Virus record (IMG/VR): IMGVR_UViG_2548877011_000013
DNA length: 5,230 nucleotides
DNA from: a virus
Lineage: Duplodnaviria > Heunggongvirae > Uroviricota > Caudoviricetes
Direction: 5' to 3' (one strand)
A program made the translations under genes and the position numbers. Below the pieces are notes generated by a model that ran no database searches, was not told where the DNA came from, and saw only the letters and a program-made list of their open reading frames with translations. Below are positions 1 through 5,230 of this stretch, in pieces. How positions within the stretch are numbered: position 1 is the first letter of the stretch; each line of letters begins with the position of its first letter.

Positions 1-192
1 ATGCACAAAGCATCTCCTGTTGAGTTAAGAACGAGCATTGAGATGGCACATAGCCTTGCTCAAATTGGAGTCAGGTTTGTGCCAATACCAGTAGAAACAG
101 ACGAAGAATTTCATACGTTAGCCGCATCCCTTTCACAAAAGCTGGAAATGATGGTGGCGAAAGCAGAAGCAGATGAGAGAGACCAGGTATGA
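1..192 (+). CDS. Small lambdoid early-region protein, lambda orf63-like (DUF1382-type); 63 aa
   Basis: ORF of exactly 63 codons starting at base 1 (window begins on the ATG). The sequence MHKASPVELRTSIEMAHSLAQIG...AKAEADER matches my recollection of the lambda orf63 family. Its stop TGA (190-192) overlaps the next ATG (189-191). Homology is from memory, not searched. Confidence 0.55.
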   Translation: MHKASPVELRTSIEMAHSLAQIGVRFVPIPVETDEEFHTLAASLSQKLEMMVAKAEADERDQV

Positions 193-272
193 CAACCACT
201 GAATGCATTTTTCTGGCAGCGGGCTTCATATTCTGTGTGCTTATGCTTGCCGACATGGGACTTGTTCAATGA
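189..272 (+). CDS. Micro-ORF encoding a 27-aa hydrophobic peptide (MTTTECIFLAAGFIFCVLMLADMGLVQ), putative single-TM small protein
   Basis: The ATG at 189 overlaps the upstream stop (gtATGA) and the stop at 270-272 overlaps the ATG at 269 (caATGA), so it is coupled at both ends. There is a weak purine-rich stretch (GAGAGAG, 175-181) upstream. The core is an uninterrupted hydrophobic run of about 19 residues. Below the 60-aa cutoff of the ORF track. Confidence 0.3.
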   Translation: MTTTECIFLAAGFIFCVLMLADMGLVQ

Positions 273-484
273 CACCTCAGCAAGAAAACGCCCTTCGCAG
301 TATTGCCCGTCAGGCTAATTCTGAAATCAAAAAAGCCAGACAGCAGTTTCCGGATAAAAACGTCAATGACATTTGCCGTAGCGTACTAAAGAAGCACCGC
401 GAAACGGTAACGCTGATGGGATTCACACCGACTCATTTAAGCCTGGTGATCGGCATGTTAAACGGCGTCTTTAAGGAACGGTGA
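269..484 (+). CDS. Small lambdoid early-region protein, lambda orf61-like; 71 aa from ATG 269 (alternative in-frame start at 203 gives 93 aa)
   Basis: Same reading frame as track ORF 203..484. I prefer the start at 269 because of the ATGA overlap with the upstream micro-ORF and because the 22 residues added by the 203 start are Cys-rich with no Shine-Dalgarno sequence. Position after the orf63-like gene matches lambda gene order. Family assignment is from memory. Confidence 0.5.
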   Translation: MTPQQENALRSIARQANSEIKKARQQFPDKNVNDICRSVLKKHRETVTLMGFTPTHLSLVIGMLNGVFKER

Positions 485-505
485 ACATGAAAAGCAAAAT
501 CATCA

Positions 506-530
506 GGGAGCTACAGGCTCCTTTTTTATT
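506..530 (+). terminator. Candidate intrinsic terminator: 5-bp GC-rich stem GGAGC(507-511)/GCTCC(517-521), 5-nt loop, followed by TTTTTTATT
   Basis: Read directly from the sequence: gGGAGCtacagGCTCCttttttatt in the 98-nt intergenic gap between 484 and 583. The stem is short, so this would be a weak, probably antitermination-sensitive terminator. Confidence 0.35.
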
Positions 531-582
531 GTTCGCATTCATCCTCAAGCGTATTAACCAACAATTCAGGGATTAATGGAAG

Positions 583-804
583 ATGGCAGACATCATTGAT
601 TCAGCATCAGAAATTGAAGAATTACAGCGCAACACAGCAATAAAAATGCGCCGCCTGAACCACCAGGCTATATCTGCCACTCATTGTTGTGAGTGTGGCG
701 ATCCGATAGATGAACGAAGACGCCTGGCCGTTCAGGGTTGTCGGACTTGTGCAAGTTGCCAGGAGGATCTGGAGCTTATCAGTAAACAGAGAGGTTCGAA
801 GTGA
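583..804 (+). CDS. TraR/DksA-family C4 zinc-finger protein (lambda Orf73-like RNA-polymerase secondary-channel binder); 73 aa
   Basis: Motif C35-x2-C38-x17-C56-x2-C59 (HCCECGDP...GCRTCASC) is the canonical TraR/DksA zinc finger. Length (73 aa) and position just upstream of ea22 match lambda orf73. The stop TGA (802-804) overlaps the GTG start of the next gene. Confidence 0.8.
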   Translation: MADIIDSASEIEELQRNTAIKMRRLNHQAISATHCCECGDPIDERRRLAVQGCRTCASCQEDLELISKQRGSK

Positions 805-1571
805 GCGAAATTAATTATCAGGCACTGCGTGAAAAGGCAGAGAAAGCAACTAAAGGAAGCTACATCGTAGGGCATACATCTGTTAACCAGCACGGCAATT
901 TAACAGGAGTTTTTGTTTGCCAAAAATGGAAAGGAGAACCCGGTGGCGTGATTGCGGAATGTCATGTTAACTGCCTGATTGAATCAGATGCTCAGGCTTA
1001 TGCAAACGCTGAATTCATAGCAGAGGCTAACCCGGCTACCGTGCTGGCACTGCTGGATGAACAGGAAAGAAACCAGCAATACATCAAACGCCGCGACCAG
1101 GAGAACGAGGATATTGCTCTTACGGTAGGGAAGCTGCGTGTTGAGCTGGAAGCAGCAGAGAACAACCTTATTGATAGTGAATGCCATGTTGCTGAACTGG
1201 AAGAAGCGCTACGCGATAAGCAGGCGTTACTTGAAGCCTCAGAAAAGCGCAACGCAAAATTACAAAGCGAGAATGCATACATCCGCAACCGGTACAAAGA
1301 ACTGGACCTATTAATCGGGAAAAACATTCTTGTCATGCAGGCTGCGATTATCGAATGGCAGGCAACTGGCGACGCTAAAAGCGGACTGGCATGGATTTAT
1401 AACACACTGTTTGGCCCAGGCGAATTACCGGACGAATCTGAGAAAGATGCTCAGGCCTACTTTAATCGCAAATATGCACCGATTGACGAAAATCTCATGG
1501 AGCTTCACAAGTGGTTTTGGGAACAAAGTGAAGCCGAGCGCGCCGCTGGCATTCGCATCAAAGGAGAGTGA
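801..1571 (+). CDS. Ead/Ea22-like family protein; 256 aa with a central coiled-coil region
   Basis: GTG start at 801 with GAGAGG 6 nt upstream, overlapping the upstream stop (GTGA). The N-terminus MSEINYQALREKAEKAT and the motif EFIAEANPATVLALLDEQE match the conserved Ead/Ea22 signature as I recall it. The middle region is heptad-like and rich in E/K/R/L/A. Confidence 0.7.
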   Translation: MSEINYQALREKAEKATKGSYIVGHTSVNQHGNLTGVFVCQKWKGEPGGVIAECHVNCLIESDAQAYANAEFIAEANPATVLALLDEQERNQQYIKRRDQENEDIALTVGKLRVELEAAENNLIDSECHVAELEEALRDKQALLEASEKRNAKLQSENAYIRNRYKELDLLIGKNILVMQAAIIEWQATGDAKSGLAWIYNTLFGPGELPDESEKDAQAYFNRKYAPIDENLMELHKWFWEQSEAERAAGIRIKGE

Positions 1572-1572
1572 T

Positions 1573-2328
1573 ATGATTCACTACCACGGTGGGCCTATTA
1601 CTCCTGATACGTGCGCAATGAGAGCATGGAAAGGGCGACATGCGTTTATCAGTTTTGCGCATTCAGGCCAGATCAATCTCGCGGCTGAATACTGTCAGTC
1701 GTTCGCGCTGGACAACGGTGCATTCACCGCCTGGAAAGCAGCTGGCAAAAACAAAATCGACTGGAGCGATTACTACGAGTTTGTTGCTCGCTGGAAGAAT
1801 CACCCAGGATTCGATTTTGCCATTATCCCGGATGTTATTGATGGCGGAGAGGAGGAAAATGATGCGCTTCTGAATGAGTGGCCTCACGGAAAACTAGCTG
1901 GCGTTCCAGTGTGGCACATGAATGAAAGTGACGAGCGATTTATTCATTTGTGCAATGAGTTTCCGCGAGTGGCTATCGGTAGTTGTGGCGACTATGACGT
2001 AAAGCGCCCAACTCTTGCGGTAGCCAGAATGAAAGACCTGATTCGTCACATTGTTGATGGGCATGGTCAGCCGGTTACGAAACTACATGGATTGCGCATG
2101 TTAAATCCGCTGATATTCACAAAATTACCCTTAGCCAGCGCAGATAGTACGAACGTCGCTCGAAACATCGGTATTGATAAAGCCTGGTCTGGGGCTTATG
2201 CACCTGCAAGTAAAGAGACACGCGCAGCATTAATGGTAGAACGGATTGAGGCACACAATAGCCCTGGTTCTCTTGCGTATTGTGAACAACGCGACCGCTT
2301 TGAAATGCAATTGCAACTAGCACTTTAA
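1573..2328 (+). CDS. TGT-fold protein, DpdA-like DNA-guanine transglycosylase candidate (7-deazaguanine DNA modification); 251 aa
   Basis: ATG at 1573, 2 nt after the Ea22 stop, with AGGAG at 1562-1566. The track ORF 1330..2328 is an out-of-frame upstream extension into Ea22. Motifs align in order and spacing with E. coli Tgt: LDNGAF (D47) to DSGGFQ, FAIIPDVID (D87) to IFDEC, VAIGSCG to AVGGL, and DSTNVARNIG to DCVMPTRNARNG. The C-terminal CxCxxC...H zinc module of tRNA TGTs is absent, as in phage DpdA. The ORF call is firm; the functional call is moderate. Confidence 0.5.
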   Translation: MIHYHGGPITPDTCAMRAWKGRHAFISFAHSGQINLAAEYCQSFALDNGAFTAWKAAGKNKIDWSDYYEFVARWKNHPGFDFAIIPDVIDGGEEENDALLNEWPHGKLAGVPVWHMNESDERFIHLCNEFPRVAIGSCGDYDVKRPTLAVARMKDLIRHIVDGHGQPVTKLHGLRMLNPLIFTKLPLASADSTNVARNIGIDKAWSGAYAPASKETRAALMVERIEAHNSPGSLAYCEQRDRFEMQLQLAL

Positions 2329-2338
2329 GGACTAACAA

Positions 2339-3169
2339 ATGACCACTATTACCAAAGAACGTATTGAATTGTTCATTAAAAATCCGCTTGAAAACGGGCT
2401 TACTCGTGGCGAACAAATGGAACTGGCACGAATTGCACTGGCATCACTGGAACGCGAACTGATTCGCCACGAGCATGCCAAATGGTCTGACTCCACATTT
2501 GGCTGCGTTGGCCCCATTGGTCCACTGAAACACCTCTCAAAAGAGGCTCTGGAAGCCGCAGCCGAACCAGACGATCTCAGCGAGTGGGCTGATATGCATT
2601 TCCTGTTGTGGGATGCACAGCGCCGTGCTGGCATCAGCGATGCTGAAATTACCGCTGCTATGGAAGATAAATTGAAGATCAACATGGAGCGCCAGTGGCC
2701 TGAACCAAAAGATGGTGAGCCTCGCTTGCACATTAAAGAACCCGGCAACTCTCCGGTAATTCCGGATGGTTTATCCACGGTATGCGCTGAGGCTTATCAG
2801 GTTGTAGGAGTTATGGCAGATGCGCTTGGTGTATTCGGTGATGCAGCAGTACAGAAAGTTCTGGATAACCTGTCACAGCAAAAACTTGTTCACAGAGATG
2901 TGCTGCCGTTCTCGCTTCCGGCAACTCCGGATGGTTGGATAAGCTGTAGTGAGCGAATGCCTGAAATGGGAGAGCGACAATGCTATGTGTTAGCAGCTGA
3001 CTTTAAAAACAACTACCCACCAAACATCCCCAACACTCAGGTCGGCGTATATGGCGACTGGTTTAATGATGGCAAGCCCACTTGGGATGACGGTGATGGC
3101 GAAGACCTGTATCTCAAAGAGGTAACCCACTGGATGCAGCTACCAGAACCGCCGCAGGAGGTGAAATGA
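2339..3169 (+). CDS. Two-domain phage protein: N-terminal MazG-like dATP/dGTP pyrophosphohydrolase domain (DUF550-type) plus C-terminal DUF551; 276 aa
   Basis: AAGGA 7 nt upstream of ATG 2339. The N-terminal ~120 aa is all-alpha with acidic clusters (KHLSKEALEAAAEPDDLSEWADMHFLLWDAQRRAGISDAEI) typical of the MazG/HisE-like fold. The C-terminus has DGWISCSERMPE ... VTHWMQLPEPP, which matches the DUF551 signature. Assignment from memory. Confidence 0.65.
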   Translation: MTTITKERIELFIKNPLENGLTRGEQMELARIALASLERELIRHEHAKWSDSTFGCVGPIGPLKHLSKEALEAAAEPDDLSEWADMHFLLWDAQRRAGISDAEITAAMEDKLKINMERQWPEPKDGEPRLHIKEPGNSPVIPDGLSTVCAEAYQVVGVMADALGVFGDAAVQKVLDNLSQQKLVHRDVLPFSLPATPDGWISCSERMPEMGERQCYVLAADFKNNYPPNIPNTQVGVYGDWFNDGKPTWDDGDGEDLYLKEVTHWMQLPEPPQEVK

Positions 3170-3252
3170 TGAATTGGCCTGAAGCATTCACCGCAGTTGG
3201 AGTTGCAATAGCGGTGGCATTTATTCTGTATTCGCTTTTCCGCTGGGGATAA
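3166..3252 (+). CDS. Micro-ORF encoding a 28-aa single-TM peptide (MMNWPEAFTAVGVAIAVAFILYSLFRWG)
   Basis: The ATG at 3166 overlaps the stop of the preceding gene (aaATGA), and the ORF ends 4 nt before the next gene. It has a 19-residue hydrophobic core flanked by Trp and Arg. The preceding GGAGG at 3157-3161 could serve as its Shine-Dalgarno sequence. Below the track cutoff. Confidence 0.35.
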   Translation: MMNWPEAFTAVGVAIAVAFILYSLFRWG

Positions 3253-3256
3253 AGGA

Positions 3257-3499
3257 ATGTTCGCTCTGATTCAACGTGGTCAGATATACACGGACAGAGC
3301 CGGATACCCTGTGGTGATTACTCGCAGTACTCAGCACTCAGTGTTCTTTCGACGCATGGACGGGCGCTCCGGACGGGTACGCATTGGTGAGTTCAACAAC
3401 CTGTTCGAACATATTGACCAACAGGAGTACCGCAAAATTCTGGCGGGCACTGAGCAGGAAATGCGCCTGAAAAAATTACGCGCAATGCAACGGAGGTGA
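3257..3499 (+). CDS. DUF4222-like small phage protein; 80 aa
   Basis: ORF with GGGGA 7 nt upstream of the ATG. The sequence MFALIQRGQIYTDRAGYPVVITR...FFRRMDG resembles the DUF4222 family common in enterobacterial prophage ea regions, from memory. Confidence 0.6.
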   Translation: MFALIQRGQIYTDRAGYPVVITRSTQHSVFFRRMDGRSGRVRIGEFNNLFEHIDQQEYRKILAGTEQEMRLKKLRAMQRR

Positions 3500-3502
3500 T
3501 AC

Positions 3503-3637
3503 ATGCATACGGCTTTTGAGTTCTGGGTTCGCAAGACATTCGGCAATCGCTACGACCTGACCCGTGATGTCGACGGCTTCTACTGCCGTGAAGTTGTGAA
3601 ACGAATGTTTGACGTGTGGTTCCACTGCCGTGGATGA
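3503..3637 (+). CDS. Unannotated small ORF, 44 aa (MHTAFEFWVRKTFGNRYDLTRDVDGFYCREVVKRMFDVWFHCRG), hypothetical protein
   Basis: GGAGG (3493-3497) sits 5 nt upstream of ATG 3503, and the ORF starts 3 nt after the upstream stop. It fills an otherwise unexplained 156-nt gap in a tightly packed operon. Below the track cutoff. Confidence 0.4.
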   Translation: MHTAFEFWVRKTFGNRYDLTRDVDGFYCREVVKRMFDVWFHCRG

Positions 3638-3655
3638 AAGTTTTATGAGGTTGGC

Positions 3656-3910
3656 ATGCAGACAATCATCTATCAGATAACCCCCAGCAAATGGTGTACG
3701 GAGAGAGTCCTTATTGCATCAACAGGGCTAAAGCCCGGCACCATCGAGCGGGCCAGAAGAAAGTCATGGATGCAGGGAAAAGAATACCGCCATTACGCTG
3801 TAGAAGGTGATCCTGGGCATTACAGTGAATGCCTGTACAACATCGAAGAAATTATGCGATGGATCGAAAACCAGAAACAACCAGGTGCCAAAAATGCAAG
3901 TTCCGGTTAA
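3656..3910 (+). CDS. xis: Excisionase / recombination directionality factor (Rac XisR-like); 84 aa
   Basis: Immediately upstream of the integrase on the same strand, with GAGG 5 nt before the ATG. Small and basic, with the segment ITPSKWCTERVLIASTGLKPGTIERARRK resembling a winged-helix excisionase N-terminus. Function is inferred mainly from position and size. Confidence 0.6.
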   Translation: MQTIIYQITPSKWCTERVLIASTGLKPGTIERARRKSWMQGKEYRHYAVEGDPGHYSECLYNIEEIMRWIENQKQPGAKNASSG

Positions 3911-3943
3911 CCTGTTAATGCTCCTGGACGTCTGGGAGGTTTA

Positions 3944-5230
3944 ATGAGTAACGCATCATACCCGACAGGCGTTGAAAACCATGGAGGATCACTCCGTATA
4001 TGGTTTCACTATAATGGCAAACGTGTCAGAGAAAACCTCGGTGTTCCTGACACAGCCAAAAACCGGAAGATCGCTGGTGAACTTCGCACTTCCGTTTGTT
4101 TTGCAATCAGAATGGGGAGTTTCGACTACGCCGCGCAGTTCCCTAATTCCCCTAACCTGAAACACTTTGGTCTGGGAAAAAGAGAGATAACCGTTAAGGC
4201 ACTTTCGGAAAAATGGTTGGACCTTAAGAAAATTGAGATTTGTGCGAATGCACTTAACCGTTACCAGTCAGTAATTAAAAACATGTTACCAATGTTAGGT
4301 GAAAAAAAACTGGTTTCATCCATAACAAAAGAGGATTTACTTTTCGTAAGGAGAGATTTGTTGACCGGTTACCAAAAGCTTTCTAATGGAAAGACTTCTT
4401 CCATAAAAGGGCGCTCAGTGGTCACGGTAAACTACTATATGACAACCATAGCTGGAATGTTTCAATTTGCAACAGATAATGGTTATACCTCAGGAAACCC
4501 ATTTAACGGTCTGGCTCCCTTAAAAAAGTCCAAGGTAAAACCAGATCCTCTCACCCGTGACGAATTTATTCGTTTTATTGAGGCTTGCCGTCATCAACAA
4601 ACAAAAAACCTGTGGATTCTCGCTGTATACACGGGTATTCGTCACGGGGAGTTGGTATCGCTGGCATGGGAAGATATAGACCTTAAAGCAAGGACTATAA
4701 CCATCCGTAGAAATTATACAAAACTTGGCGAATTCACTCCACCAAAAACCGATGCAGGCACCGGAAGGACAATTCATCTGGTTCAACCAGCTATTGATGC
4801 TCTTAAAAGCCAGGCGGAAATGACCATGCTTGGAAAGCAACATTCTGTAGAGGTGAAGCAGAGGGAATATGGGAGAACTGCTGTGCATAAATGCACTTTT
4901 GTTTTTAGTCCTCAGGTAACAAAACAGCAGCAGTTGTCCGGACCTCACTACAAGGTTGACTCCATCAGGGAGTCATGGACAAGTATCTTAAAACGCGCAG
5001 GTCTGAGACACAGAAAATCGTACCAATCCAGGCATACTTATGCATGCTGGTCACTTGCCGCAGGAGCTAATCCTAGTTTTATCGCAAGCCAGATGGGCCA
5101 CACAAACGCACAAATGGTATTCAATGTTTACGGAGCATGGATGAAAGACAACAATCACGAACAGATAGAACTCCTTAACAAAAGACTATCTGAAAGTGTC
5201 CCATGTATGCCCCATAAGAAAGCAGGGTAA
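3944..5230 (+). CDS. int: Tyrosine-type site-specific integrase, lambdoid (Rac IntR / HK620-like) with N-terminal arm-binding domain; 428 aa, complete
   Basis: GGGAGG 4 nt upstream of the ATG. N-terminal arm-type domain (LRIWFHYNGKRVRENLG...FDYAAQFP). Catalytic-core motifs GIRHGEL, LAWEDIDL, SRHTYACW, AGANPSFIASQMGH and NVYGAW, the last carrying the presumed catalytic Tyr. Stop TAA at the window end. Confidence 0.92.
   Translation: MSNASYPTGVENHGGSLRIWFHYNGKRVRENLGVPDTAKNRKIAGELRTSVCFAIRMGSFDYAAQFPNSPNLKHFGLGKREITVKALSEKWLDLKKIEICANALNRYQSVIKNMLPMLGEKKLVSSITKEDLLFVRRDLLTGYQKLSNGKTSSIKGRSVVTVNYYMTTIAGMFQFATDNGYTSGNPFNGLAPLKKSKVKPDPLTRDEFIRFIEACRHQQTKNLWILAVYTGIRHGELVSLAWEDIDLKARTITIRRNYTKLGEFTPPKTDAGTGRTIHLVQPAIDALKSQAEMTMLGKQHSVEVKQREYGRTAVHKCTFVFSPQVTKQQQLSGPHYKVDSIRESWTSILKRAGLRHRKSYQSRHTYACWSLAAGANPSFIASQMGHTNAQMVFNVYGAWMKDNNHEQIELLNKRLSESVPCMPHKKAG

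Follow-up and report, generated by a model that had tools for sequence, protein, structure and literature searches.

A conserved micro-ORF with a predicted transmembrane helix in the probable early-left region of a lambdoid prophage

Background

Does a reading frame of fewer than 30 codons, set at the end of a larger gene in a lambdoid prophage, encode a membrane peptide, or is it a chance open reading frame (ORF)? The locus that raises this question lies in a stretch of 5,230 nucleotides (nt) of Caudoviricetes DNA (IMG/VR virus record IMGVR_UViG_2548877011_000013), and this whole stretch is called the window from here on. The original prediction, made from the letters of the window, had pointed to an unannotated micro-ORF with one hydrophobic core, coupled to a DUF550/DUF551 gene. 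It had left two readings side by side: a membrane-directed function that accompanies the cargo of a short operon, or a chance ORF.

We compared copies of the frame from genomes, phages and metagenomes. On this comparison, 3169-3252 (or 3166-3252) is very probably a real, translated and selected gene for a membrane peptide, and it seems to belong to a widespread, uncurated phage family.

Results

Reading frame and start codon

The ORF at 3166-3252 is present as predicted, with a translation of 28 amino acids (aa), MMNWPEAFTAVGVAIAVAFILYSLFRWG, and its ATG overlaps the stop of the upstream gene (aaATGA), also as described. A second in-frame ATG, at 3169, begins on the last base of that same stop (Table 1). 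The first codon is GTG in the loci L056-L060 and L081 and is absent from all 27-aa relatives, so the product shared by the family is the 27-aa peptide that starts at 3169. The distance from the GGAGG core is 7 nt to ATG 3169 and 4 nt to ATG 3166. ATG 3166 is probably not the main start, and the 28-aa form may also be made. Residues are numbered below on the 27-aa form.

Table 1. Features of the micro-ORF and its immediate neighbours, in window coordinates
Feature	Position	Strand	Remarks
Upstream gene, 276 aa	2339..3169	+	PF04447 (dATP/dGTP pyrophosphohydrolase) and PF04448 (DUF551)
Shine-Dalgarno core GGAGG	3157..3161	+	Within AGGAGGTGA (3156-3164), in the last codons (Q-E-V) of the DUF551 gene
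First in-frame ATG (start in the original prediction)	3166..3168	+	ATGA overlap
Stop TGA of the DUF550/DUF551 gene	3167..3169	+	Overlaps both candidate starts (ATGA, TGATG)
Micro-ORF, family-conserved start	3169..3252	+	27 codons and TAA; MNWPEAFTAVGVAIAVAFILYSLFRWG
Predicted transmembrane helix, A6-F24	3184..3240	+	19 residues; Kyte-Doolittle mean 2.28
DUF4222 gene, 80 aa	3257..3499	+	Begins 4 nt past the micro-ORF stop

Conservation and selection on the peptide

Copies were collected by profile-guided scans of GTDB genomes, IMG/VR and metagenomes, and 262 were extracted; tblastn confirmed at least 445-529 copies per IMG/VR scan. In 256 of the 262, the frame of 27 codons is intact and neither the ATG nor the stop has moved. 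Conservation in related prophages had been proposed as a check on the original prediction, and the frame is clearly kept.

The copies contain 79 distinct coding sequences (CDS), which encode 35 peptide variants. Counted along a minimum spanning tree of these unique CDS, 118.5 changes were synonymous and 75.5 non-synonymous, for 19.8 synonymous and 61.2 non-synonymous sites. This corresponds to an omega (dN/dS, the ratio of non-synonymous to synonymous rates) of 0.21 (binomial test, p = 5.5e-27); a first set of 39 CDS had given 0.19. By codon position, the changes fell 37/30/127, with 127 of 194 at third positions. The stop stays at the same place and alternates between TAA (68) and TGA (12). 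Nine positions do not vary at all (M1, W3, P4, A6, G11, A15, S22, R25, and W26), and P4, A6, G11, A15, S22, and R25 are each written with two to four different codons. All replacements in the helix core exchange one hydrophobic residue for another.

The conserved block has sharp edges. Mean pairwise identity is 0.37-0.46 further upstream, 0.65 in the 14 nt that hold the Shine-Dalgarno (SD) site, 0.83-0.87 in the ORF and 0.92 in the stop codon, and it falls to 0.33-0.38 immediately past the stop, with 0.38 in the next 10 nt. Conservation is confined to the SD site and the ORF. Such a block, whose limits coincide exactly with abrupt switches of the flanking DNA at mosaic boundaries, could be a nucleic-acid element in which the frame is incidental: an RNA, a site for protein binding, or a linker for recombination where mosaic segments join. 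Stretches such as TGGCCTGAAGCATTC, nearly invariant even at third positions among Escherichia coli phages, would fit with that. However, the edges of the conservation are the SD site and the stop codon, the changes show three-base periodicity with a large synonymous excess, and remote relatives keep the peptide and not the nucleotides. The micro-ORF region also folds no better than shuffled sequences (z-score +1.08), and no Rfam family was found at E <= 1 anywhere in the window. We consider a nucleic-acid element highly improbable.

Distant relatives

The remote relatives were detected by running HMMER in full against 1.84 billion representative proteins, with 14 matches at E <= 1e-3. The most distant one, P0023 (MNITNWPEAFTYIGCAFAIAIIFYSMFRWG, 30 aa, E = 6.4e-6), is encoded on a contig of 28% G+C and shares 18 of 27 residues with the window copy, nine of them from different codons. 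P0034 (...MGWPEAFTAVGISLSYAVIGYAMFRYR, E = 9.3e-4) comes from a phage-like contig of 57% G+C and shares 15 of 27 residues, eight of them from different codons. Since relatives at 28% and 57% G+C keep residues with different codons, it is the peptide that is conserved and not the DNA. The signature of the family is M-x-W-P-E/D-A-[FLI], a hydrophobic helix with invariant G11 and A15, and [YF]-S-x-[CF]-R-W-[GRW].

P0023 overlaps the end of a 118-aa gene on its contig (L263 1-3740, ENA metagenome), just downstream of a Ser/Thr kinase-like protein of 549 aa and a PP2C-like protein (both weak Pfam matches). The neighbouring proteins on this contig had no PHROG match, and its DNA had no match in the phage collection. 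An IMG/VR scan aimed at AT-rich relatives was filled by E. coli-type copies, and a protein search with a padded 41-aa query returned two partial fragments only.

The relatives also bear on the chance reading. The frame is very short, and the six frames of the window hold 91 ORFs of at least 20 aa, so a functionless ORF of this size would not be out of place. The conservation, selection, SD and hydrophobicity results contradict this explanation, and the relatives at both extremes of G+C argue against an artefact of recent common descent; a chance ORF is hardly credible. With an omega of 0.21 and 256 of 262 frames intact, the alternative that the original prediction left standing is resolved for a selected membrane-type peptide gene.

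Observations that count against a selected gene

Several points weigh against this reading. Some copies are broken: one by a nonsense change (phage POCJ13, TGG to TAG), two by the same 1-nt deletion –vB_EcoS-689R5 among them– and three by loss of the stop, after which the frame runs on for 11-26 codons. The broken copies mean that the gene is dispensable. A ribosome-profiling screen of enterohaemorrhagic E. coli (EHEC) Sakai considered ORFs of at least 30 aa only (Hücker 2017).

Finally, one further frame behaves like a conserved one. Omega was above 1 in the other two sense frames and in two antisense frames, but the antisense frame that shares the wobble positions is also stop-free and has an omega of 0.24. 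The selected gene could thus lie on that strand, with the + strand ORF as its shadow: the frame was stop-free in the first 40 unique sequences examined, with omega at 0.22-0.24, and the POCJ13 record annotates an antisense CDS of 42 aa. Against this, the antisense frame has no conserved start, and its length varies from 2 to 143 aa, as set by its flanks; in 41 of the 56 distinct contexts it overlaps no more than 26 of the 81 nt. The SD site, the ATG, the fixed stop and the transmembrane profile are all on the + frame. An antisense gene is therefore extremely unlikely, and the low omega of this frame is probably a mirror image of selection on the sense strand.

Translation signals and expression

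Each of the 41 distinct upstream contexts has an SD-like site that precedes the conserved ATG by 3-9 nt, mostly with a GGAGG-type core and with duplex energies from -5.8 to -13.6 kcal/mol, whichever gene is upstream. In all 11 upstream gene clusters, the stop of the preceding gene and the start share 1 nt (TGATG) or 4 nt (ATGA). A simple consensus scan –weak negative evidence– gave no promoter-like site on either strand in 2900-3700, and no terminator was found near the micro-ORF. Across the whole window (1-5230), we found one sigma-70 promoter-like site versus 7.2 ± 2.7 in shuffles. This depletion fits a long co-transcribed early operon.

From gene content shared with lambda, the peptide would be expressed from a delayed-early leftward polycistronic transcript. 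Initiation would use its own strong SD site in the last codons of the upstream gene, termination-reinitiation at the stop/start overlap, or both. The peptide would then be produced on infection or induction, early in lytic growth, and not in the repressed lysogen.

The act of translation might be all that matters, with a functionless peptide and a relay ORF that hands ribosomes over or shields the transcript. In this window the geometry suits it well, as the frame begins across the upstream stop and leaves 4 nt to the DUF4222 start, an exact bridge between two genes. But the amino-acid sequence is held under purifying selection, invariant residues come from several codons, and the WPEAF...RW signature is kept from 28 to 57% G+C. 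Most of the 27 downstream gene clusters are moreover uncoupled: a gap of tens to hundreds of nt precedes the next gene, that gene is on the opposite strand, or both. We regard a relay as very unlikely.

We also considered fusion products. A frameshift or readthrough fusion to the upstream protein, which would give a membrane-anchored DUF551, was rejected on inspection: the bases before the stop differ completely among contexts, and no shared slippery site was seen. Those longer database 'proteins' in which the peptide appears are out-of-frame calls or fragments at contig edges. A protein cluster that mixes the peptide with 121-aa DUF551 proteins is a clustering artefact, again without a fusion.

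Neighbours of the cassette

The coupling to the DUF550/DUF551 gene is present in this window, as the original prediction had it, but it does not define the micro-ORF. At least 11 upstream gene clusters precede the SD site and ORF, hereafter the cassette; many of them end in a DUF551 domain, and the cassette does not always stand directly after a DUF551-domain gene. Six representatives of the upstream genes without DUF551 gave no Pfam match above the family cut-off: a 933W p77-type protein, two of the 'ACLAME 31' type, an Ea22-like C-terminus, a 220-aa protein of phage Av-05, and a 176-aa protein that PGAP names a methyltransferase.

Downstream, 27 clusters include DUF4222, hok/mok, RelE/ParD (other strand), and KilA-N. 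DUF4222 is the downstream neighbour in 35 of the first ~100 loci, and it is not found in the other 26 downstream clusters. The hok/mok gene lies 153 nt downstream of the micro-ORF in 22 of the first ~100 loci. In 933W-type phages (L004/L008 1201-1650), 153 nt separate the end of the micro-ORF from mokW/hokW downstream, so that this end comes close to the possible site of the hok promoter region. Further copies of the cassette are found on an E. coli plasmid, in phage Av-05 (120 kb), and in lambdoid prophages in the nin region, where it stands between the replication genes and rusA.

Given these many upstream and downstream contexts, the cassette is an independent mobile module of SD site and ORF, not an accessory of DUF551. 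Co-occurrence with neighbouring genes, another check proposed at the outset, thus yielded no stable partner, and neighbours this variable do not favour the accompaniment of a 'cargo'.

Membrane helix and possible function

The 19-residue hydrophobic core described in the original prediction is real. In 200 shuffles of the window, 0.23% of small ORFs attained its best Kyte-Doolittle 19-mer mean, and among the 62 small ORFs of the real window just two do so, the frame at 3166-3252 and a micro-ORF at 189-272. Four divergent relatives that we scored reach means of 1.85-2.29. The helix is flanked by W3-P4-E5 on the N-terminal side and R25-W26 on the C-terminal side.

The N-terminus always carries an acidic residue and never a basic one, the C-terminal end always carries Arg, and longer relatives have basic C-terminal tails (KNVRRD, or RWR in 933W). 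This pattern favours an N-out/C-in orientation. The peptide would insert into the inner membrane as a single-pass protein, with the Arg-Trp end on the cytoplasmic side and the N-terminus, short and acidic, on the outer side. The positive-inside signal is weak, however, in the 27-aa form, one Arg against a free C-terminus.

What is most conserved are the interfacial WPEA and YS-x-C-RW motifs and the small mid-helix residues G11, A15, and A17; overall hydrophobicity is not the conserved feature. This pattern favours the view that the peptide makes specific contacts, helix to helix or juxtamembrane, with a larger membrane protein. The helix and its motifs might pack against such a protein in the inner membrane, be it from the host or from the phage, and alter its activity. 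By analogy with known small proteins, we tentatively propose a partner-modulating small membrane protein, as something short of an even prospect. On the other side of the balance, a single conserved helix face was not detected (moment 0.149 versus 0.129 in permutations, p = 0.36), and there is no stable gene partner and no family match. With the helix-face test negative and no conserved neighbour, the functional statement is a reasoned guess.

A different function would leave the gene itself untouched. The peptide could be a membrane-damaging toxin or a holin-like peptide that depolarises or permeabilises the inner membrane in lytic growth, along the lines of the type I toxins Hok, TisB, Ibs, and ShoB or of small lysis proteins, instead of binding a specific partner. 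At 27 aa, it is nearly all hydrophobic helix; gene content would place it in the early operon of a temperate phage; the hok/mok toxin gene follows at many loci; and broken copies are expected if expression is costly. However, the most conserved elements –W-P-E-A, Y-S-x-C-R-W, G11, A15, and A17– point to specific contacts. There is no signal of an antisense RNA either, with no promoter-like site at 2900-3700 on either strand and no Rfam match, and the frame is translationally coupled to an ordinary upstream gene, with no structured leader to silence it. It lies outside any lysis cassette, and no toxin match was obtained in Pfam, NCBIfam or PADLOC. We regard a toxin or holin-like peptide as rather unlikely.

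For the partner-modulating reading, one can go further and imagine the WPEAF...RW peptide as a pan-phage microprotein whose target is a single, highly conserved machine in the inner membrane of the host, for example an insertase, a protease, a transporter or a division component. We consider this improbable. If true, it would explain why the helix survives in phages of hosts from 28% to 57% G+C and why it travels as a self-contained unit of SD site and ORF, able to join the end of nearly any early gene. It would also mean that the major Shiga-toxin (Stx) phages carry a widespread host-takeover or exclusion factor that is absent from RefSeq annotation.

Prevalence and annotation

By tblastn, the peptide is 100% identical in BP-4795, VT1-Sakai, YYZ-2008, and several Stx1a phages, and relatives at 48-70% identity occur in 933W, VT2-Sakai, Min27, ArgO145, PhiR12, PhiR49, and Av-05. 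No lambda record was among the tblastn matches listed. The POCJ13-type peptide, with its nonsense codon repaired, gave no tblastn match, perhaps an effect of the low-complexity filter. Of 5426 complete E. coli genomes, 1610 matched a 111-nt query (the ORF with short flanks), and in 918 the match extended over at least 80% of the query. In K-12, Qin was the prophage that we looked at (hokD region), and it had no copy of the micro-ORF.

The description as unannotated holds for RefSeq/PGAP and for every phage record that we inspected, which leave a gap of ~87 nt empty at the micro-ORF. It does not hold for a few GenBank genomes, where the product is listed as the hypothetical proteins ASL58468.1 (28 aa) and ETI78407.1 (27 aa). 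Common gene callers such as Prodigal have a minimum length of 90 nt. Relatives of 29-33 aa are called by the pipelines and the 27-aa form almost never. Since the ORF measures 84-87 nt, just below that minimum, the cut-off is the likely cause of the annotation gap.

Two phage records annotate other frames at this place. In POCJ13 (L009 1206-1334), the 42-aa antisense CDS AHZ95239.1 is annotated where the sense ORF has the TGG to TAG change. In vB_EcoS-689R5 (L010 1199-1309), the 36-aa CDS URC08898.1 is an out-of-frame reading after the 1-nt deletion. Both annotations look like artefacts.

Among curated families, nothing scored above cut-off in Pfam, NCBIfam, PHROGs, PADLOC or a PDB profile search. 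The KdpF family TIGR02115 reached 14.7 bits against a cut-off of 26.85, with one relative only, and the DUF883_C glycine-zipper family PF19029 reached 13.2 bits against a gathering threshold of 27. The peptide sequence strings were absent from 8 million full texts, and likewise from the supplementary files of Hücker 2017 and Fesenko 2024. The exo-xis literature searched did not mention a transmembrane micro-ORF, and the hokW literature searched did not mention this ORF. The family, its behaviour as an SD and ORF cassette, and its prevalence appear to be undescribed in the sources searched.

Setting of the window

From its lambda orf63-like, ea22-like, xis, and int genes, we take the window to be the exo-xis (early-left) end of a lambdoid prophage, which is integrated beside mlrA (yehV). 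On the + strand, the order is DUF1382 (lambda orf63-like), an orf61-like ORF, a TraR/DksA-like gene, the ea22-like gene, a 251-aa ORF, the DUF550/DUF551 gene, the micro-ORF, DUF4222, a 44-aa ORF, xis, and int. Bases 1573-5223 are identical to E. coli 2014C-3061 (NZ_CP027548). Part of the ea22-like gene (815-1063) differs from that genome, with a net length difference of 132 nt among other changes, and so marks a mosaic joint inside the gene.

The upstream gene at 2339-3169 is one continuous ORF in the window, with both of its Pfam domains; PF04447 is presumably the 'DUF550' of the original prediction. In NZ_CP027548, PGAP splits the same gene (L001 2940-3770) into a 'partial' pseudogene fragment and a CDS that starts at window position 2432.

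At 505-523 (+), a terminator-like hairpin of eight pairs followed by TTTTATTGTT separates the orf61-like ORF from the TraR/DksA-like gene, in a stretch that otherwise resembles one operon. The micro-ORF at 189-272 (+), the first of the two in the window, encodes MTTTECIFLAAGFIFCVLMLADMGLVQ between the orf63-like and orf61-like genes and has a Kyte-Doolittle 19-mer mean of 2.33. By tblastn it was found in 175 phage records, lambda itself included, always at 90% identity or more (at least 92.6% among the matches listed). Divergence among its copies is too low for a test of coding selection.

Discussion

A conserved small membrane ORF in a phage is not surprising in itself. In this case, the comparative evidence is solid and the candidate is easily tested. 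The 111-nt query that covers the gene matches 17-30% of complete E. coli genomes, and the gene is present in the reference Stx phages 933W, VT1-Sakai, and VT2-Sakai, yet it has neither a RefSeq annotation nor a curated family. For research on small phage proteins it is a concrete and well-supported candidate, and it illustrates cleanly how a mobile cassette can consist of no more than an SD site and a micro-ORF. Moreover, deletion or overexpression studies of the exo-xis region of Stx phages may have manipulated an unrecognised membrane peptide.

Comparison with known systems

The neighbourhood has been studied in lambda, where the exo-xis region encodes the small proteins Orf60a, Orf61, Orf63, Orf73/TraR-like, Ea8.5, and Ea22 (PMC3824215, PMC8614690, PMC10789677). 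The micro-ORF shares with them its location and a non-essential accessory character, and it would share their early expression. Unlike the predicted micro-ORF product, none of Orf60a, Orf61, Orf63, Orf73, Ea8.5, and Ea22 is known to be a membrane peptide.

Holins, antiholins and spanins differ in place, as the micro-ORF sits in the exo-xis region in the window, or in the nin region in other prophages, and not in a lysis cassette. The type I toxins (Hok/Gef, TisB, Ibs, ShoB, Ldr) are closer in kind, being small hydrophobic membrane peptides encoded by prophages, and the micro-ORF often stands beside hok/mok; hokW-sokW of Sp5/933W is a type I toxin-antitoxin system (PMC8621323). Unlike these toxins, the micro-ORF lacks an antisense RNA or promoter signal, a structured leader and a family match, and it has a strong SD site and a start that overlaps the stop of an ordinary upstream gene.

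Conserved intergenic small ORFs are numerous in Enterobacteriaceae, as reported for the Entero67K microprotein clusters (Fesenko et al. 2024, PMC11188072), and therefore this kind of protein is already known. Like those, the micro-ORF falls within 15-70 codons, is under purifying selection, is unannotated, and is hydrophobic and potentially transmembrane, as most of them are. It differs in overlapping the upstream gene by 1-4 nt, so it is not strictly intergenic.

Small single-pass inner-membrane proteins have been reviewed as a class (PMC12648545). The micro-ORF product belongs with them by length (below 50 aa) and by its one predicted transmembrane helix, and it agrees with those of regulatory function in having a real, selected coding sequence.

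Several such proteins act as modulators of a larger partner: MgrB with PhoQ, AcrZ with AcrB, MgtS with MgtA, KdpF with KdpABC, and PmrR with LpxT. The micro-ORF peptide has no sequence similarity to them. Unlike theirs, its gene is phage-borne and mobile and not part of the chromosomal core, and it is coupled to variable upstream genes in what would be an early phage operon, without a promoter of its own. What it has in common with this class is the small size, the one hydrophobic helix, aromatic and basic residues at the interface, small residues conserved within the helix, and the fact that early annotation missed them.

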